Shown: one piece after another, positions 9,371-57,009 of the stretch
Numbering within the stretch: position 1 is the stretch's first letter
Layout: every line of letters begins with the position of its first letter
Origin: an uncultured bacterium
GTDB lineage: Bacteria > Fidelibacterota > UBA2242
Reading direction: 5' to 3'
Assembly (NCBI GenBank): GCA_964576275.1
Contig: CAZNUN010000003.1
Location: 69,848-133,847, forward strand
DNA length: 64,000 bases
Program-made: the position numbers and the translations under genes
Notes under the pieces: model-generated
What the model was told of the DNA's origin: nothing
The model's input: the letters and a program-made list of their open reading frames with translations, nothing else
The model's database searches: none

Positions 9371-10601
9371 CAGTTTTAATCGCTTTATCGGTTCGCTCTC
9401 AAACCTGAACCGTCTGGTTCTGGTGTTTGTTGCCCTGCTGTGTATCATTGGCATATTGTCAGTATACAGTGCTTCGCTGAACATGGAGGGCTCCTTCTTT
9501 CAAAAAGGATTCGGCCGACAGATTATCTGGCTGATAGCCGGAAGCCTGGTGGCCGCGGCGATTTTTTTTATACAGAAGAAACTGATTTTCGACTCGGTCT
9601 ATATCTTGTACGGAATCGGCTTTGCACTCTTATTAGTACCTTATTTCCTTCGTTCTTCGGTAGCCGGTACGGCCCGCTGGATACCCGTCGGCTCGATGGG
9701 GCTCCAGCCTTCCGAGTTTATGAAAATATTAGTCATGCTGGCGATTGCGCGCTTCGTGGCAAGCACCTCATATTCCAATCTGGATTTTAAGTTCGTCCTG
9801 ATACCAGCGCTCTTTTCGATATTGCCGATGATTGTGGTGCTAAAGCAACCGGATTTGGGGACTTCGATGATCTACTTCGGATTGTTGTTTCCTATGTTAT
9901 ACTGGGCGGGCGCGCGGCTCTTTCATCTCTTTATTATTATCGCGCCGGTCGTCAGCGTGATAAGCGCTTTCAATTTCTATACTTTTTTCGTGTGGGTTGT
10001 CGTAATCCTGATTGTACTTTATTTTACCAAGGAGAAACTCTGGATCTCTCTGACGGTGATGCTTTCCAATCTGGCGCTTGGTTTTGCCACTCCGGTACTC
10101 TGGGGCAGTCTGAAGCCTTATCAACAGCAGCGGATTATGACTTTGTTCAACATTGAAGCCGATCCTCAGGGGGCCGGTTATCAGGTAATTCAGTCCAAAA
10201 TCGCCATCGGATCCGGCGGGCTTTTCGGCAAGGGCATTGCGCACGGAACCCAGACGCATCTTAAATTTTTACCGGAGCAACATACCGATTTTATCTTTTC
10301 CGTGATCGGTGAAGAATATGGCTTTATCGGAGCGGTGGTGGTGCTGGTGTTGTTTTTAGCCTTTATATTGCTCTGTCTGTATATCGCTTATCGTCAAAAA
10401 GATCGCTTCTGTTCGTTATGTATGGTCGGAGTCGCCGGTATTATCGGAATTCATGTGACGATTAACGTCGCAATGACGGTAGGTTTAATGCCCGTAACCG
10501 GTTTGCCTTTACCGTTTATCAGTTATGGAGGCTCGTTTTTGCTGACCTGCTTTATTTTGTTAGGACTAGCTTTGAATATCGGTTCGGATAAACAATATTG
10601 A
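9351..10601 (+). CDS. rodA: SEDS-family peptidoglycan glycosyltransferase RodA
   Basis: ATG at 9351 overlaps the mrdA end. A 10-TM FtsW/RodA-type protein, placed after PBP2 in the mre operon. Confidence 0.9.
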   Translation: MRRSIINSFNRFIGSLSNLNRLVLVFVALLCIIGILSVYSASLNMEGSFFQKGFGRQIIWLIAGSLVAAAIFFIQKKLIFDSVYILYGIGFALLLVPYFLRSSVAGTARWIPVGSMGLQPSEFMKILVMLAIARFVASTSYSNLDFKFVLIPALFSILPMIVVLKQPDLGTSMIYFGLLFPMLYWAGARLFHLFIIIAPVVSVISAFNFYTFFVWVVVILIVLYFTKEKLWISLTVMLSNLALGFATPVLWGSLKPYQQQRIMTLFNIEADPQGAGYQVIQSKIAIGSGGLFGKGIAHGTQTHLKFLPEQHTDFIFSVIGEEYGFIGAVVVLVLFLAFILLCLYIAYRQKDRFCSLCMVGVAGIIGIHVTINVAMTVGLMPVTGLPLPFISYGGSFLLTCFILLGLALNIGSDKQY

Positions 10602-20076: not shown

Positions 20077-23000
20077 ATGCAGATAAATAAATATTTTATT
20101 AACATAATAGTCCTGTTGGCTTTTATAAGCGGATCAGCTGCGGCAATGATGGAGCCGGCTTACCGTATCGCTTCTCCATCTCAGCCGTCGATGGCGATTT
20201 CCAATCCGATCCGGATTTGCGCCCTGCGGATCAGCTTCCTGCCTGATGATGATGAGACCACCACGGGAACCGGACAGTTTCTTACAACGGTAGTTGATCA
20301 TCCCTGCGACGAGTTTGTCGTCGATCCGGCTCCGCATAACCGCGCCTATTTCCAGGATCATATCCGCTCTCTGGCGAATTATTACCAAACCGTATCGGAC
20401 GGGAAGGTAAACATTGATACCCTTAATTCAACGGTCTTTCCTTTAACGGATGACAGCAGTTTCCAGGTCGGTCATGCGATGGCTTATTATCATCCGTTCT
20501 TGGTTGAAGATTCGGTTGATTTACGCCTGAGCGAACTGTTGGTGGATGCCGTGCAGGCCGCCGATCCGGTCGTGGATTTTTCACAATTCGATCTGGTGGT
20601 GGTATTCCATGCCGGGGTCGGTCAGGATTTTGCGATTACGCTCGATCCGACGCCTTATGATATTCCGTCGGCCTATATGAACAAGAATGATTTGAAGGCC
20701 CTGTTGTCTCCCGGCGATCCGGATTTTGAAGGTCTGCCGGTTGAGAACGGGACGGCTTTTGTTACCTGTGGACTGATCCTGCCGGAGAGCCAGAATCATT
20801 TGCTTTACGATAATTACGAAGAAGTTTTCGGCAGTGGTGAATCGGTCTGCGAATATCAGTTCGGGCTGAATGGCACTTTTGCCTTCACCTTCGGTTTTTT
20901 TCTCGGGCTGCCGAGTCTCTATAATACCGAAACCGGCTATACCGGTATCGGCCGTTTCGGTTTAATGGATCAGGGTTCGGCTAACCTGAACGGTTTGGTT
21001 CCGTCTGTTCCCAACGCCTGGGAGCGTGTTTTTCTGGGTTGGGAAACGCCGGCCGTGGTCGGAAAATTTGCGGATGTCAGTCTTGAAAAAGCCGGTTCCG
21101 GCGCCGGCACGACCGTCTGGAAAATTCCTATCAACTCCCATGAATATTTTTTAATTGAAAATCGCTGCGCCTGGTTTCGCCCAGGAGTCAGTCTCGACAG
21201 CCTCCAGTATCAGATTTACATGGCGGGTGGCGAAAAGAACTGGCCGTCGGCCTTTCCGCTGATTCGGGACACCCTGAAAGCCGTGTTTTCTACGGAAACC
21301 GGAGTGATGTTATCCGTTCCGCACTATGATTACGGGATTCCCGGCTCGGGGCTCCTGATCTGGCATATTGACGAGACAATTATCAACGCCAATCTGTCCA
21401 CCAACCGGGTCAATGTCGATCGCGATCGGCGCGGCGTTGATCTGGAAGAAGGCGATGGCGCTCAGGACCTCGGCTATGACGCCGACATTCTGAATGAAGA
21501 CGTCGAAGACGGCTGGTTTTTCGATCCGTGGTTTGCCGGCAACGACGGCTTCATCGATCTTAATCCGGAATATGAGTTGGATGCGGAAAAACGGGTGGGC
21601 TTTACCCCGTACACCAATCCGTCATCCTGCAGTAACAGTTTTGCGTTTACCGGGATTTATGTTGACAGCATCGGACCAGCCGGCGAAACGATGACTTTTC
21701 GGATCACCTTGAAAAATGCGCTGGATAATTTTCCACTGATTTTTGCGAGCCAGCCGGAAGAAATCTTACCCATTGATCTGAATCCAGCCGATCAAACGGA
21801 AGAAATTCTGGTAATTGGCGACAGTCTGTGGATTTTCAGCCCTGACGGTGAACGCGTGGCGGTGTCTCCGGCCGATTCCATCAATGTGATTAGTGACAGC
21901 CTGATATTGTACGGTCTCGGGGGCGAATCCCTGTCAGCCCGCCAACTGGCCGCTGACGGACAAATTATGCTGATTGACACTCTCTACATGCCAGGATGGC
22001 AATTTTACGGCCGACCGTTACCGGTCAAGACCGGCTTGCTGTCCGCCGCGCAAAACAGCGCCCGGCAGAATTTTCTAATCTACTATCAACCGGAACTGCA
22101 TACCGTTTCGGCTTTTTCGATCGATGAGTCCATCGAAAAAATAATCGGCGGCGATGACAATCTGTTTGCGGCTACCAGTGACGAGCGGGTCAGGCGCATC
22201 CGGCTGGATCCATTTTCGGCGGAGGTCGTGAGCAACCTGCCAAAGGCGGGCGACGGCACGCTGGCGACGGCCTTTATTAACGCGGATACCTTTCCCGATC
22301 TGATCCATTGTAGTGATTCGCTCCTGACGCTGATTCTGGATATTGGAAGCGACAATGAGACCACCCTGAGCAAGATGGTGAAATTAAACGGTAATTTAGC
22401 CCTGGCTGACCTTGACGGTGACGGTAAAATCGAGATCATCGTCGCCGGCTCCAATCAGATTTATGCGTACAATGAAGAACTCACGCTTGAAAGTAATTTT
22501 CCGGTCAGCCTGCCGTTCATTCTGGGCGGCGATCAATTCGGCGTAGAATTGCTATCCGCCGATCTGGATGGCGACGACAACGGTGATATTATCATCAATA
22601 CCTCGGCGGCGCTGCTGGCATTTAATTACAAAGGCGAGCTGCTGGAAAATTTTCCTAAAGTGGTCGACTCCTCTCCAAAGCCATTGACCGGGATGCTGTT
22701 CAATACGCCTCACGGACTGGCTTATCTGGCTGCTATGCAGGCAGACGGTGCCATCGATTATTACAATCGGTTGATGGCCACTATCATCACATCTCACGCT
22801 CACGAAACGGGTGACTGGATCTGTTATGGAGGCGGCGGCAACCGCCAATTTTATTGTGCTACTGCTTCGCAGAGCGGCGCTGTTGAAGATGAGACGCTTT
22901 TAGATCAAGCCCGAACATTTAACTGGCCGAATCCGGTAAAAGACGACCACACCTTTATCCGCTATTTCCCAAATCACAATTGCGATATCACGATCACTGT

Positions 23001-23181
23001 TTATGATTTGGCGGGAAGTCTGATCGCCAGCTTCAAGGATTCGGCGCCGCTGATCGGCGAACCTAACGAGAAAGAGTGGAACACCGCCGGGGTGGCCAGC
23101 GGAGTTTATTTCGCTGTGGTGAAGGCGAAATCCGGTGCTAAAAGCGAGTCCAAGATCGTTAAAATTCTGGTGGTGAATTAA
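20077..23181 (+). CDS. T9SS-secreted protein (1034 aa): M6 immune-inhibitor-A-like domain with degenerate active site, FG-GAP/VCBS-like repeats, and a T9SS C-terminal sorting domain
   Basis: Signal peptide is present. The M6 motif HEYGHNLGLPDEY is replaced by FTFGFFLGLPSLY (nt 20881-20922). Repeats are of the form DLDGDGKIEIIVAG / DLDGDDNGDIIIN. The C-terminal 85 aa match the Por_Secre_tail (WPNPV...ITITVYDLAG...GVYFAVVKA...KIVKILVV). Confidence 0.7.
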   Translation: MQINKYFINIIVLLAFISGSAAAMMEPAYRIASPSQPSMAISNPIRICALRISFLPDDDETTTGTGQFLTTVVDHPCDEFVVDPAPHNRAYFQDHIRSLANYYQTVSDGKVNIDTLNSTVFPLTDDSSFQVGHAMAYYHPFLVEDSVDLRLSELLVDAVQAADPVVDFSQFDLVVVFHAGVGQDFAITLDPTPYDIPSAYMNKNDLKALLSPGDPDFEGLPVENGTAFVTCGLILPESQNHLLYDNYEEVFGSGESVCEYQFGLNGTFAFTFGFFLGLPSLYNTETGYTGIGRFGLMDQGSANLNGLVPSVPNAWERVFLGWETPAVVGKFADVSLEKAGSGAGTTVWKIPINSHEYFLIENRCAWFRPGVSLDSLQYQIYMAGGEKNWPSAFPLIRDTLKAVFSTETGVMLSVPHYDYGIPGSGLLIWHIDETIINANLSTNRVNVDRDRRGVDLEEGDGAQDLGYDADILNEDVEDGWFFDPWFAGNDGFIDLNPEYELDAEKRVGFTPYTNPSSCSNSFAFTGIYVDSIGPAGETMTFRITLKNALDNFPLIFASQPEEILPIDLNPADQTEEILVIGDSLWIFSPDGERVAVSPADSINVISDSLILYGLGGESLSARQLAADGQIMLIDTLYMPGWQFYGRPLPVKTGLLSAAQNSARQNFLIYYQPELHTVSAFSIDESIEKIIGGDDNLFAATSDERVRRIRLDPFSAEVVSNLPKAGDGTLATAFINADTFPDLIHCSDSLLTLILDIGSDNETTLSKMVKLNGNLALADLDGDGKIEIIVAGSNQIYAYNEELTLESNFPVSLPFILGGDQFGVELLSADLDGDDNGDIIINTSAALLAFNYKGELLENFPKVVDSSPKPLTGMLFNTPHGLAYLAAMQADGAIDYYNRLMATIITSHAHETGDWICYGGGGNRQFYCATASQSGAVEDETLLDQARTFNWPNPVKDDHTFIRYFPNHNCDITITVYDLAGSLIASFKDSAPLIGEPNEKEWNTAGVASGVYFAVVKAKSGAKSESKIVKILVVN

Positions 23182-52479: not shown

Positions 52480-53193
52480 ATGCGGGCCAAAGAGCCAGCT
52501 GTTTACAAATTACCGATTACTGCATGGCCTGAAAACGACCGGCCCCGCGAAAAATTAATGCAGTCCGGCCCGCTAAAACTGACTGAAACCGAACTATTGG
52601 CGATTCTGCTCAGATCCGGCGCCGGAGGCAATTCTGCACTCGATGTCGCCCGCGAACTAATCCGACGGAGCGGCGGTCTCAAGGCTCTGGCGCAAATGGA
52701 TTATCACGATATTCTCAATTTAAAAATCAAGGGCCTCGGACCGACCAAAGCCGTGACTATCGCCGCCGGTTTGCAATTAGCCCGGCGCTTGCAGGCAGTC
52801 AGCGACGCCCCCCCGGAGTTGATCATTCACGACAGTGAAGAGGTGGCCAGAATCTACAGCCCGAAGCTGCGCGATCTGAAAAAGGAAATTTTCATGGTTG
52901 TGCTCCTGGCCAGCAACAATAAGATCATTCGTGACGCGATTATTTCGGAAGGGGTTCTGAATGCTTCTGTCGTCACTCCGCGTGAAGTTTTTCGTGAGGC
53001 GGTGCTGGGTATGGCAGCCGCCGTGATTCTGATTCACAATCACCCGAGCGGCAATCCCGAACCGAGCAGTGAGGATTTGCGCCTCACGCGCCAGATGAAA
53101 GAAGTCGGTCAGACCATGAACATACCGGTTCTCGATCACCTAATTATTGCCGGCGACCGCTATACCAGCTTCGCAGATAAAAAGTTGCTCTGA
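52480..53193 (+). CDS. radC: RadC-like JAB/MPN domain protein
   Basis: ATG at 52480 with GGAG 10 nt upstream. An HhH region and the JAMM motif HNHPSGNPEPSSED are present. Confidence 0.85.
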   Translation: MRAKEPAVYKLPITAWPENDRPREKLMQSGPLKLTETELLAILLRSGAGGNSALDVARELIRRSGGLKALAQMDYHDILNLKIKGLGPTKAVTIAAGLQLARRLQAVSDAPPELIIHDSEEVARIYSPKLRDLKKEIFMVVLLASNNKIIRDAIISEGVLNASVVTPREVFREAVLGMAAAVILIHNHPSGNPEPSSEDLRLTRQMKEVGQTMNIPVLDHLIIAGDRYTSFADKKLL

Positions 53194-53232
53194 CAGAATG
53201 TTTATGTTAATTTAGACGCCGGAAACAGATTT

Positions 53233-53541
53233 ATGGATAACGATACAGTAAAGTTAGAGATAACCTCATCTGCCCGCGCGGAGATGCTGCACATTTTAGA
53301 AACCGTAACAGAACCAAACCGGATTTTTCATCTTTATGTGAAAGGATTCAGCTGAAGCGGACCCCAGTTGGGGATTGCTCTGGAAGAGCCGCACGCCGCC
53401 GATGAGATCATGGAAGTGGACAATATAAAAGTCGCTTATAATCGTTCCCTGCAGAGGTATTTAGATGGAAAGATCGTGGATTACAGGCCGGACTTTTTTG
53501 GTCACCGGAAATTTATTGTTTATGGTAACTCCGCCTGCTGA
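53233..53541 (+). CDS. Candidate selenoprotein: IscA/HesB-like protein with in-frame TGA (Sec) at codon 41
   Basis: MDNDTVKLEITSSARAEMLHILE...IFHLYVKGFS-TGA-SGPQLGIALEE...YLDGKIVDY...GNSAC aligns by eye with IscA. The TGA at 53353-53355 sits exactly on the first conserved Cys of the SGCSG motif. A hairpin (GCGGACCCC-AGUU-GGGGAUUGC) lies directly downstream. The ORF is absent from the track because the TGA splits it. Confidence 0.55.
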
Positions 53542-53576
53542 TAGCGGATTTGTGATAATAAAGAAAGAGGGATTCA

Positions 53577-54974
53577 ATGGAGACACTTGATCAAGCAACT
53601 CTGCAACAATATGTTGACAACAATCCTGACAGCCATCTGTTACCACGACTGGCCGCGTTTTTCCTGGCGGAAAATGACATCCGGGCGGCAACTGATCTGT
53701 GCCGGCAGGATCTGACAATTCATCCTCAATCTGCGCTTGCTCATTTTATTTGGGCTCTGGGGGCCGAAGCTCAGGACGATATCGACCTGGCAGTGGAACA
53801 TTTCCAGGCCGTCGTGCGCTGCGATGCTTATTTCCTGTCGGCTTATTATAAATTGGTTAAATACAGCCAGGGTTATTTGACTCCCCAACAGCTGAAAAAT
53901 TGTTATGAACAAATCTGCCGTCTGAATCCTTTCGATGCCGATATCGCTGCCAAACTGGCCGCGCTGCCTGAGGATCTCGATATGCTGGCGGTTCAGATGA
54001 AAATCAAGCCTCAGCGCCAACCCAAAACAACTCCTCCTCCGGCTGCCGAACCCACCGCCACCCAAGCAGCGGTTGAACCGGTTCCAGCGGAAGAACCACC
54101 GACTCCGGATTTTTCGAGGCCGGACACAACCCCGGAAGTCGATATAGCCGGCGGTGCCGGACGCCTGGAAAAGTTTTTTAATTCCATGAAAGAAGCTGCC
54201 GATCTGCATAAGCAGCCGGTTGTCGCTTCTAAACCGGAAATTCCTGAGGAGGAAGCTCACTTCGGTCCGCTGGATCTGTCTGAGCCGGATGAAACACCGG
54301 CTGAACCCGAACCTGGGATGGTTTTCGATGAACCCGCATCGGTTCCGTCTCCGGACGCTGCCGAAAAAGCGGAAGGTTCTTCGATCAGCGATTTTTTCAG
54401 CCGGTTGCGCAATAAACCACTCGAGGAAGTTCAGAAGGAAAACTGGATGGCCGAACATGCCATGGCAAGCGTTCAGGCAGAATCACCCGCGCCTAAAGTA
54501 GAATCTCCCAAACCAACCAGTCTGAAAATTGAGGAGCCTCCGATCGAGTCGAATCCGGACATAATTGCCGGAAAACTGGAGAAATTGCTGGCGCCTGAGC
54601 CGGCCCCTCATATCTCCGAACAAATATCCGAAGAGTCCGTGACGCCTGAGATTTCAGCTGAGTCGGAAAACCCGGAGAGTCAACCGGTGGTAACCGCCGA
54701 AAAGCCCGCGGAGACCGCCAAACCATCCGCTCCTAAAAAGCGCCCCCCGCGTCAGACCAAAAAAACCAGCCCGGCTGCCAACAATATTACGTTTCCGATA
54801 CCGACCTGGACTTTGGTGGATGTGCTCACAAAGCAGAAACTTTTCGAGCAAGCCTTGAGTATTCTGGATATAATCGAAGCCAAGTCGAAGAACGAAAAAG
54901 ATCTGGAAAAAGTCCAGACCAGCCGTGCCGAAATCATCAGAAAAATGGCTGAGGAACAATCCGGGGAAGCCTGA
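53577..54974 (+). CDS. Hypothetical protein with an N-terminal TPR-like region and a long Pro/Glu/Ala-rich low-complexity segment
   Basis: An AAGAGGG RBS is present. The 465-aa ORF has acidic PE-rich repeats (PEPAP, EPEPG, ESPAPKVESPKP). No catalytic motifs. Confidence 0.5.
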   Translation: METLDQATLQQYVDNNPDSHLLPRLAAFFLAENDIRAATDLCRQDLTIHPQSALAHFIWALGAEAQDDIDLAVEHFQAVVRCDAYFLSAYYKLVKYSQGYLTPQQLKNCYEQICRLNPFDADIAAKLAALPEDLDMLAVQMKIKPQRQPKTTPPPAAEPTATQAAVEPVPAEEPPTPDFSRPDTTPEVDIAGGAGRLEKFFNSMKEAADLHKQPVVASKPEIPEEEAHFGPLDLSEPDETPAEPEPGMVFDEPASVPSPDAAEKAEGSSISDFFSRLRNKPLEEVQKENWMAEHAMASVQAESPAPKVESPKPTSLKIEEPPIESNPDIIAGKLEKLLAPEPAPHISEQISEESVTPEISAESENPESQPVVTAEKPAETAKPSAPKKRPPRQTKKTSPAANNITFPIPTWTLVDVLTKQKLFEQALSILDIIEAKSKNEKDLEKVQTSRAEIIRKMAEEQSGEA

Positions 54975-55394
54975 TCAGGCGACCGGATTGATCAGGATTT
55001 CGTAACTGATCTCCGTTGATTTGGACAGCATTGCCGAAACCGAGCAGTATTTATTCTGTGACAGGTTTACGGCCTTGGCAATGCTGTCGGCGTTCAGATT
55101 CGGACCGTGGAAGATATATTTCAGGTGAATTTTGGTATAAATGCGCGGATGTTCCTCGCGGCGTTCGGCACTGACCTCGACCAGAAATTTTTCGGCGGGT
55201 GTGCGCATTTTGTGTAAAAGCGATTCGACGTCCATTCCGGTGCAGGCGCCCAGGGCAATCAGAACCATCTCCATGGGCGTGTTGGCGGCGTCCTGTCCGC
55301 CGTGCTCAGCTTTTGTATCAATGACAGTCCAATGATTGGAATCGCCGCGGCCGACGAAGGTGTTATTTTCTAAACGCTGGAGATAGACTTTCAT
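54975..55394 (-). CDS. OsmC/Ohr-family peroxiredoxin-like protein
   Basis: 139 aa with the OsmC signature (LIALGACTGMDV) and conserved Cys residues. Confidence 0.85.
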   Translation of the reverse strand: MKVYLQRLENNTFVGRGDSNHWTVIDTKAEHGGQDAANTPMEMVLIALGACTGMDVESLLHKMRTPAEKFLVEVSAERREEHPRIYTKIHLKYIFHGPNLNADSIAKAVNLSQNKYCSVSAMLSKSTEISYEILINPVA

Positions 55395-55462
55395 GGTACG
55401 TTCCTTAAATTATTTTTGACCGGTGAGGGTGCGTATGGAAATGGTGATAGGATTGTTGAAGA

Positions 55463-55714
55463 TTATTCGTCGCAGGTCTTGGACGGATCATTGAGCTTAA
55501 GACAGGTCAGCAGGTCGCGGGTGACTTTTTCCGGGACCTGATCGCACTGGTCAGCCTGGCGGTATATTTCGATAGTCTGTTTGATTTTATTCACATAGAC
55601 TTCGCAATTGGGATAAGCTTCCATATGATCCCGAATTTGTTTGCAGGGTGAGGAATCGAGATCGCTTCCCAGATATTCGCAAATTTCATGAAAAAGGGTT
55701 TTATTGATAGTCAT
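55463..55714 (-). CDS. Putative Cys-rich (zinc-finger-type) anti-sigma factor
   Basis: 83 aa with 6 Cys plus His. Its start overlaps the ECF sigma stop by 4 nt (ATGA), suggesting translational coupling. Confidence 0.45.
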   Translation of the reverse strand: MTINKTLFHEICEYLGSDLDSSPCKQIRDHMEAYPNCEVYVNKIKQTIEIYRQADQCDQVPEKVTRDLLTCLKLNDPSKTCDE

Positions 55715-56304
55715 GGCAATACATCGGCTTTGACCGAATCCTCTAAATGTTCTTTAAGAAAATTACGGGCGCGCATCAGCCGGATTTTGGTGTTGGAAGG
55801 GGTAATTTGTAAAATGCGGCTGGTGTCTTCGGTTGACAATTCATGTAAATCCCTCAGAATAAAGACCGTGCGGTACATTTCCGGTAATTGTTCTATGAGA
55901 CGGTCTAATTTCTGGCGAAAACGGCGGTCGTTAACGATGCTGAAGTCGAATTTAGGCCATTCGCGGGCATTTTCCGCACTGACCCGCTCGAAGTCGGGAT
56001 CGTCAACCGAGATATGATCGTACTTATGCGGTTTGGATTTGAGTTTGCGCAGGCCGACATTCACGGCGATCCGGTAAAGCCAGGTGTAGAATGAGGATTT
56101 ACCCTGAAATTGACCGATCTTTTTAACCATGATTAAAAATGTTTCCTGTAAAATATCTTCGGCATCCTGCGGGCTTCCCGATAAGCGCAATCCCAGATGA
56201 TAAATCCGGCTGCTGTAACCGGTGACTAATTGCGATAAGGCCACGCGATCGCCTTTTTTGGCGCGCGCAACTAATTGCTCTTCCTGCTGACGGTCGTTTT
56301 CCAA
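55711..56304 (-). CDS. ECF-family RNA polymerase sigma factor
   Basis: Sigma-70 region 2 (YSSRIYHLGLRLSGSPQDAEDILQETF) and region 4 (LPEMYRTVFILRDLHELSTEDTSRILQI). Confidence 0.85.
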   Translation of the reverse strand: MENDRQQEEQLVARAKKGDRVALSQLVTGYSSRIYHLGLRLSGSPQDAEDILQETFLIMVKKIGQFQGKSSFYTWLYRIAVNVGLRKLKSKPHKYDHISVDDPDFERVSAENAREWPKFDFSIVNDRRFRQKLDRLIEQLPEMYRTVFILRDLHELSTEDTSRILQITPSNTKIRLMRARNFLKEHLEDSVKADVLP

Positions 56305-56343
56305 CGCCGATTAATTTAGTGAATGAGCGCCAAAATTCCATTG

Positions 56344-57009
56344 CTATTTTACCGAAGGTGAGTAATCCGACCGGCTGGCTAAGATTTGTTCCAGATATTT
56401 GGACTCGGAAACGGCGCCGTCCACCCTCAGCGTTTCGTTGATAACGGAGCGCGGCACGCCGCGGACCTGGTACTTTTGGGCCAGGTGGGGAAATTCGATG
56501 GCTTCGATCATATCGGCGCGAATGTTTTCATTCAGGAGCGCAAAACGATGAGCGGTTCGCACGGCCGCCGGGCAATACGGACAGGTCGGCGTAATGAAAA
56601 CCTGAATATGCACCGGCCAGGTGACTTTTTTCAGGTCGTTGACGACCTCGGCGGGCAGGTCGGTTTTGCCGTTGGACAAATCTACGATATCTTCCATCAG
56701 GGTCGTGAATTCATAGCCCGACGGGATGCCGTAGAATTTAATCCGGGTGTGCGGCTTGGTGGCGGACATCAGAAGCGTCGCCGGGATTTTGTCCACACCA
56801 TACTGTTCCGCCAGGGCTTTGTCTATCTGGAAATTGTAAACCTCGAGGCTAAGTTTATCGGAAAGCTTCACGACTTCTTCCATTATTTCGCGCGTCTCGC
56901 GGCAGTACTGACATTCGAGTGTCTGGGTAAAATTTACGATCCGCACCGGATCGGTCAGACGGCTGAAAACCTCGCGAACATATTTCTGATCGCTTTCTTT
57001 TAATAGCAT
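56344..57009 (-). CDS. Glutaredoxin-like protein disulfide oxidoreductase with two thioredoxin folds
   Basis: Two CxxC active sites (CQYC and CPYC) in tandem thioredoxin-like halves, the Pyrococcus PDO-type architecture. Confidence 0.7.
   Translation of the reverse strand: MLLKESDQKYVREVFSRLTDPVRIVNFTQTLECQYCRETREIMEEVVKLSDKLSLEVYNFQIDKALAEQYGVDKIPATLLMSATKPHTRIKFYGIPSGYEFTTLMEDIVDLSNGKTDLPAEVVNDLKKVTWPVHIQVFITPTCPYCPAAVRTAHRFALLNENIRADMIEAIEFPHLAQKYQVRGVPRSVINETLRVDGAVSESKYLEQILASRSDYSPSVK

Follow-up and report, generated by a model that had tools for sequence, protein, structure and literature searches.

Canonical A-type carriers hold three cysteines, one in a CSG motif and two in a C-terminal CxC. 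The HesB-like proteins have been a recognised family of prokaryotic selenoproteins since the mid-2000s, with 11 bacterial members in 2006, a dedicated model (TIGR01911) and the motif UxGP (PMC1794560, PMC1088965, PMC13188914). They are known in Methanococcus, Deltaproteobacteria, Clostridia and Symbiobacterium (PMC1794560, PMC13188914), and the member from Methanococcus maripaludis has been confirmed as a selenoprotein by 75Se labelling, its function being unknown (PMC11097638). Family members have a HesB/IscA fold of about 100 residues with selenocysteine (Sec) at the first conserved Cys, homologues with Cys in the same column, and a bacterial-type SECIS hairpin just downstream of the UGA.

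The same combination is predicted at positions 53233-53541 of the window, by which we mean the whole 64-kb stretch of DNA analysed here, from a Candidatus Marinimicrobia bacterium. The lineage is indicated by the MreB and TrpB-like proteins of the window, whose clusters at 90% identity include NCBI entries from MAGs of Candidatus Marinimicrobia/Neomarinimicrobiota. Judging from sequence comparisons, this locus is very probably one gene for a 102-residue HesB/IscA-like selenoprotein, in which UGA encodes Sec. It probably represents a divergent addition to the known UxGP family, with the fold, the motif, the Sec/Cys alternation and a putative bacterial SECIS (bSECIS) all present and with profile scores below the curated cut-offs. 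The first-pass annotation had presented the gene as a candidate selenoprotein. It overrated the novelty of this, as the HesB-like family is long established (PMC1794560, PMC13188914), but the proposal itself is supported by TGA in syntenic orthologues, by 76 TGA against 4 TGT codons in the wider family, by purifying selection past the TGA and by a SECIS-like hairpin.

The reading frame and its homology to A-type carriers

The reading frame opens with the ATG at 53233, closes with the TGA at 53539-53541 and is split by a single in-frame TGA at codon 41, exactly as first annotated. Its main features are:

53233-53541, plus strand: predicted complete coding sequence of a HesB/IscA-like selenoprotein, 102 codons (Sec at codon 41) and the stop, based on profile matches, PDB alignment and hhalign
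53353-53355, plus strand: in-frame UGA, putatively read as Sec (U41) in the motif U-S-G-P (UxGP), based on alignment to the CSG Cys and conservation of the TGA
53536-53538, plus strand: TGC codon of Cys102, the last residue and only Cys, presumed partner of Sec41, based on the invariance of the C-terminal Cys in three alignments (A1, A3 and A4)

The frame translates as MDNDTVKLEITSSARAEMLHILETVTEPNRIFHLYVKGFS, then the UGA, then SGPQLGIALEEPHAADEIMEVDNIKVAYNRSLQRYLDGKIVDYRPDFFGHRKFIVYGNSAC and the final stop (abridged, MDNDTVKLEITSSARAEMLHILETVTEPNRIFHLYVKGFS, UGA, SGPQLGIALEEP...VYGNSAC, stop), and the immediate flanks of the presumed Sec41 are GFS-U-SGPQLGIALEEPH. The first-pass annotation had called the frame unannotated and expected gene callers to miss the protein. 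The JGI gene calls are indeed two fragments, a 40-aa ORF labelled "hypothetical" and a 57-aa ORF named "Fe-S cluster assembly iron-binding protein IscA". It is therefore true that no intact gene was called, but both pieces were, the second under an IscA name. When the full protein, with Cys in place of Sec, was used in a word-indexed protein search, the sole match was its own C-terminal fragment.

Profile and structure comparisons bear out the likeness to IscA along the whole length, on both sides of the TGA and in a single frame. With Cys placed at the stop, the NCBIfam model for ErpA matches residues 3-97, spanning the TGA (E=5.7e-9), and TIGR00049 matches at E=7.5e-9. The two selenoprotein models also match, HesB_rel_seleno (TIGR01911) with 33.4 bits (E=5.2e-8) against a curated cut-off of 66.35, and IscA_HesB_Se (NF038090) with 32.6 bits (E=7.6e-8) against a cut-off of 85. 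All four NCBIfam matches to the window protein thus fall under their curated cut-offs. The orthologue at locus L006 reaches 44.9 bits with TIGR01911, and typical relatives score about 69 bits with NF038090, also below its cut-off. Similarly, Pfam Fe-S_biosyn (PF01521) covers residues 7-89 with 17.9 bits (E=0.0037), under the gathering threshold of 26.3; a precomputed PF01521 match is present in many relatives. A phmmer search of the PDB aligned residues 9-91 with Aquifex IscA (1NWB, E=6e-4) and residues 2-94 with Haemophilus HI1723 (2APN), and codon 41 falls exactly opposite the CSG-motif Cys of both. This is the first cluster-ligating Cys, where the UGA had been placed by eye. Finally, hhalign matched three Marinimicrobia orthologues to the Sec family over 94 columns with a probability of 99.7% (E=3e-27) and with the Sec columns aligned, although identity to the main Sec family was only 24% at the profile level.

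The window protein thus shares the domain of IscA, SufA and ErpA (PF01521; 1NWB, 2APN) over residues 2-94, with the UGA at their CSG Cys. Where these proteins have three cysteines, it would have Sec first and a CxC cut to one terminal Cys. The single C-terminal Cys (GNSAC) was correctly noted in the first-pass annotation and is invariant throughout the family, in which one Cys, or a Cys near the terminus, is the rule. The window protein has the Sec/Cys column in common with NF038090, the named family that comes out first or close to first for typical relatives. It differs from the main HesB-like Sec family in reading S-U-S rather than G-U-G around the Sec and LGIALEE rather than GLALDE downstream.

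Conservation of the UGA and of the sequence beyond it

The same sequence, including the TGA, occurs on eight contigs, and one of these (L002), which comes from another sample, was identical when read. More distant support comes from the syntenic Marinimicrobia orthologues at loci L006/L007/L008 and L013. TGA interrupts their complete frame of 103 codons at the equivalent position (...MKGYG-TGA-GGPRLGIALEE...), and they share only 44-49% protein identity and 62-63% nucleotide identity with the window gene.

To gather the wider family, we ran a HMMER search with the 61 residues that follow the UGA, which returned six matches. A profile search seeded with these found 249 relatives, two of which (P0002 and P0105) are 58-aa fragments like the one in the window and come from the syntenic loci L006/L007/L008 and L013. 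Among the 120 relatives listed, the Sec column reads W in 115 and Cys in three, and three are fragments; the Cys forms include P0005 and P0118. The W forms are found among P0003 and P0007-P0122 (GWGGPSFGLALDE). We read the DNA of three such loci (L009:10001-10300, L011:5090-5392 and L014:96-386), and all three keep TGA at the codon. The Trp in the databases is therefore a gene-calling artefact.

We also scanned one genome per species for the peptide pattern GGP[STQ][FIL]GLALD, leaving the choice of codons free. The codon before GGP was TGA at 76 of the 80 loci found and TGT at the other four. TGA and Cys codons thus alternate in this column across the family, with TGA in all three Marinimicrobia orthologues. 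The hosts of these loci are mostly Tissierellia and other Clostridia, joined by Deltaproteobacteria, the candidate division CSSED10-310, Vulcanibacillus and Tepidibacillus. Selenoprotein-rich species occur in both Clostridia and Deltaproteobacteria (PMC1794560). Marinimicrobia-type patterns gave no match in one genome scan and two metagenome scans, which also missed the source contig itself.

Two loci carry a tandem second HesB-like paralogue (L082:9548-9904 and L049:1176-1475), each again with a TGA in frame and with the GCTCTGGANGAGC core of the first copy. The paralogue in L049 is without the C-terminal Cys.

Selection acts on the part of the gene beyond the TGA as well as on the part before it. 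Comparing the three Marinimicrobia orthologues in pairs, we obtained a dN/dS of 0.13-0.49 for the codons before the TGA and of about 0.25, in all three pairs, for those after it; the part after the TGA is therefore translated in the same frame. In the 80-sequence alignment, the codon matching the TTG "start" of the window's second fragment is TTT in most family members, and hence the downstream part cannot start independently. Synonymous sites are themselves constrained directly after the UGA; pS is 0.16-0.29 over codons 42-54 but reaches 0.52-0.79 over codons 55-102.

Hairpins downstream of the UGA

Two hairpins can be drawn in the sequence after the UGA, and they overlap by two nucleotides:

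53377-53389, plus strand: SECIS-like core GCUCU-GGA-AGAGC, coded by Ala-Leu-Glu-Glu and a C, based on synonymous invariance and an RNAalifold consensus helix
53357-53378, plus strand: hairpin GCGGACCCC-AGUU-GGGGAUUGC, lineage-specific, -11.5 kcal/mol

The first of these is the conserved element. In the window it consists of a 5-bp stem with a GGA triloop and a U-A closing pair, its first stem base lying 22 nt and its loop starting 26 nt after the UGA. An ungapped alignment of the 55 nt from the UGA in 80 distinct Sec genes shows no variation in columns 25-32 and 34-35 and next to none in columns 36-37. The resulting consensus is GCU CUG GAN GAG C, or the hairpin GCUC[UGGAN]GAGC, and the RNAalifold consensus helix is this same hairpin. 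The codons of the core are nearly fixed (Ala GCT in 76/76, Leu CTG in 76/76, Glu GAG in 75/76, followed by C in 71/76), whereas the remainder of these genes uses GCT for 36% of Ala, CTG for 7% of Leu and GAG for 24% of Glu. Below the core, the pair 24-38 varies on both sides (AU 15, GU 15, GC 14, UA 5, CG 1, with 30 of the 80 cells unpaired), and none of 500 shuffles reached the observed count of double changes. As the sequences are related, this covariation is supportive rather than proof.

The forms with Cys show what happens to the hairpin at loci with TGT. In Clostridioides difficile (L090-L092, around 10105-10150), the region reads GCT TTA GAT GAG A; the hairpin is lost, with a folding energy of 0 kcal/mol. 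In contrast, the Cys form at L088 (around 10099-10140) retains GCTCTGGATGAG-A, which looks like a remnant SECIS left by a recent switch from Sec to Cys. A comparable remnant has been reported for Desulfitobacterium hafniense (PMC1794560).

The bSECIS model of bSECISearch (Zhang and Gladyshev) requires, in the summary given in PMC13188914, a distance of 16-37 nt between UGA and loop and an energy of -7.5 kcal/mol or lower. As far as that summary describes the model, the window element agrees with it in its 3-nt loop, 5-bp upper stem and 26-nt spacing, and likewise in having G in the first two loop positions and the pattern U-GGA-A. The energy of the window hairpin alone is -4.9 kcal/mol, and the summarised limit is reached only with flanking structure; the UGA and the following 45 nt (48 nt in all) fold to -16.6 kcal/mol. 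The isolated hairpin is more stable in L006 (-8.1) and L013 (-7.2 kcal/mol), both of which have two extra base pairs that the window hairpin lacks, and typical members reach -9 to -10.9 kcal/mol. Rfam has no family at gathering threshold anywhere in the window and none overlapping the gene at E values up to 10.

Within the 64-kb window, the core matches only at 53377-53389. The 13-nt core GCUCUGGANGAGC, embedded in the A-L-D/E-E codons, is common to loci from Bacillota/Clostridia, Deltaproteobacteria, CSSED10-310 and Marinimicrobia. This spread over phyla could mean that gene and SECIS travel together, or that the minimal hairpin is a near-universal SelB ligand. At L077:9886-9898 and L078:9884-9896, the same 13-nt core turns up one more time, within an upstream ORF that is unrelated (...NERALEEHEK...) and with no TGA 24 nt before it; the core alone is therefore not diagnostic.

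The first-pass annotation had instead placed the SECIS at the other hairpin, which starts 2 nt after the UGA. That hairpin does exist at 53357-53378, and at -11.5 kcal/mol it is the most stable one locally. All three Marinimicrobia orthologues preserve its CCCC/GGGG part as well as the codons CCC, UUG and GGG, and their synonymous divergence is low across codons 42-54 in their entirety. Nevertheless, we consider it unlikely to be the SECIS. With its loop beginning only 10 nt from the UGA, it falls short of the 16-37 nt given in PMC13188914, and its 3' arm runs into the 5' arm of the conserved hairpin. Across the 80 family members only 65% of cells pair; the pairs 7-24, 10-21 and 12-19 fail in most cases, and a register shifted by -1 gives a higher score. 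Such pairing as there is mostly follows from the Gly-Pro...Gly codons. Nor is its stability unusual for its composition (z = -1.5, with 20 of 200 shuffles folding as well). It could be a lineage-specific auxiliary or lower helix, with the conserved hairpin at 53377-53389 as the SECIS proper.

Alternative readings, genomic context and possible function

With the UGA as a true stop, the locus would represent either a pseudogene or two independent small genes, one of 40 aa and one of 57 aa starting from the TTG at 53368. This is how JGI called it, and a TTG does lie 13 nt after the UGA. It would also fit that we found no tRNA-Sec, selA, selB or selD in the window and 10 kb on either side (about 81 kb of the 336-kb contig); ARAGORN likewise predicted no tRNA, either in the window or in the Marinimicrobia loci. 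We consider this reading very unlikely all the same. The two halves make up a single HesB domain in the same frame, dN/dS stays below 1 to either side of the UGA, and the UGA is conserved at 62% nucleotide identity. The supposed TTG start is matched by TTT, a non-start codon, in most family members, and the Cys-codon forms of the same protein are single ORFs. A true stop also leaves the freeze of synonymous sites after the UGA unexplained.

The UGA could alternatively be read as a standard amino acid, either by a reassigned code (tables 4 or 25), which would make it Trp or Gly, or by near-cognate read-through as Cys or Trp, with Sec machinery playing no part. The databases do give W in this column for 115 of the 120 listed relatives, and no gene for Sec machinery was found in the roughly 81 kb read. 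However, TGA ends 21 of the 50 long ORFs in the window, and these have full-length Pfam matches; TGA is an ordinary stop here, and the code is therefore not reassigned. The only other codon seen in the column is Cys, and the hosts of the relatives include the selenoprotein-rich Tissierellia/Clostridia and Deltaproteobacteria (PMC1794560). Reassignment would moreover need no conserved hairpin at SECIS distance. Taken together, this makes decoding as a standard amino acid highly improbable. That the TGA is a sequencing or assembly error for TGC or TGT, a possibility raised in the first-pass annotation, has next to no probability; the identical TGA in eight contigs, one of them from a different sample, and in diverged orthologues refutes it. 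On this evidence, weighed rival by rival, we reject a pseudogene or two genes, a reassigned code, a sequencing error and the hairpin at 53357-53378 as the main SECIS, and retain the reading as a single selenoprotein gene.

We also looked for a second TGA-interrupted gene in the window. Of 81 raw candidates, those that we checked were alternative frames of real genes or ordinary gene ends, and none of them resembles a further selenoprotein.

The hesB-like gene has conserved neighbours on both sides:

52480-53193, plus strand: RadC/UPF0758, upstream neighbour and not part of the gene, based on Pfam and the same order in L006-L008 and L013
53577-54974, plus strand: 465-aa Pro/Glu-rich protein with no Pfam family, conserved downstream neighbour, based on synteny

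The gene for the 465-aa protein starts 36 nt after the stop of the hesB-like gene, and the two may be co-transcribed. RadC, the hesB-like gene and a Pro/Glu-rich protein of 434-465 aa follow each other in the same order in three Marinimicrobia populations (window 52480-57009; L006 9110-13562; L013 438-4009). The conserved order continues on the minus strand with OsmC, an 83-aa ORF containing Cys and His, an ECF sigma factor and, lastly, a thioredoxin-like protein that carries two CxxC motifs. OsmC, the sigma factor and the thioredoxin-like protein hint at a redox-stress setting, although they lie on the opposite strand and do not belong to the same operon.

The RadC stop (TGA, 53191-53193) shares the frame of the hesB-like gene, with no stop in the 39 nt between (window 53191-53232). 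This looks coincidental rather than like a read-through fusion, because in L006 the RadC stop is directly followed by TAA.

Two further observations concern other parts of the region. Just upstream of window position 1 (L003 1013-3119), genes for a Pyr_redox_2 flavoprotein, for DsrC and for a DsrE-like protein (DrsE_2) lie clustered after a RACo-type protein and before a six-gene NQR operon. The cluster is sulfur-relay-like, and all its members are ordinary Cys forms as called. For the 1034-aa ORF at window 20077-23181, counted from its first ATG, the gene-position index lists no exact product, although it does so for the neighbouring ORFs; the start codon in the public call is probably a different one.

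How the hesB-like gene would be decoded and what its product does, we infer from established bacterial Sec decoding and from knowledge of the family. The ribosome would read the UGA at codon 41 as Sec, with the mRNA downstream folding into the bacterial SECIS GCUCU-GGA-AGAGC at 53377-53389. This hairpin would recruit SelB with GTP and Sec-tRNA(Sec) to the UGA. The product would adopt the A-type Fe-S carrier fold, with Sec as the first ligand (U-S-G-P) and the CxC reduced to the terminal C102. Sec41 and Cys102 are the only two candidate ligands left, both invariant in the family, and we propose that together they make up the reactive centre. The product could be a dimer that carries Fe-S or Fe, ligated by two Sec + Cys pairs, or it could provide a centre for Sec/Cys redox (selenenyl-sulfide cycling) or chalcogen transfer. 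On our analysis, a carrier role and a redox or chalcogen-transfer role appear about equally plausible.

The window gene leaves the current understanding of selenoproteins unchanged. If it is decoded as proposed, its anaerobic Marinimicrobia lineage would decode Sec and need selenium. It adds a divergent sequence to the HesB-like family, where biochemistry has a clear target in the invariant Sec...terminal-Cys pair. A clean natural test set for SECIS recognition is also provided by the fixed 13-nt hairpin and by the Cys forms in which it is lost or persists as a remnant. For annotation, the consequences are more practical; the gene is split in the JGI records, and most relatives in the protein collections carry a false Trp at the active site, distorting the searches and family models that are built on them.

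We found nothing relevant on selenoproteins or selenocysteine in Marinimicrobia/Marinisomatota in the searchable literature. Perhaps the syntenic genes of the window, L006-L008 and L013 form a Marinimicrobia clade of their own, made up of HesB-like selenoproteins with two ligands (Sec...C-terminal Cys) and missed by TIGR01911, NF038090 and PF01521, although we put this forward only tentatively and regard it as somewhat less probable than the contrary. As far as the searchable literature shows, they would then provide the first evidence from sequence that members of Candidatus Marinimicrobia decode Sec.
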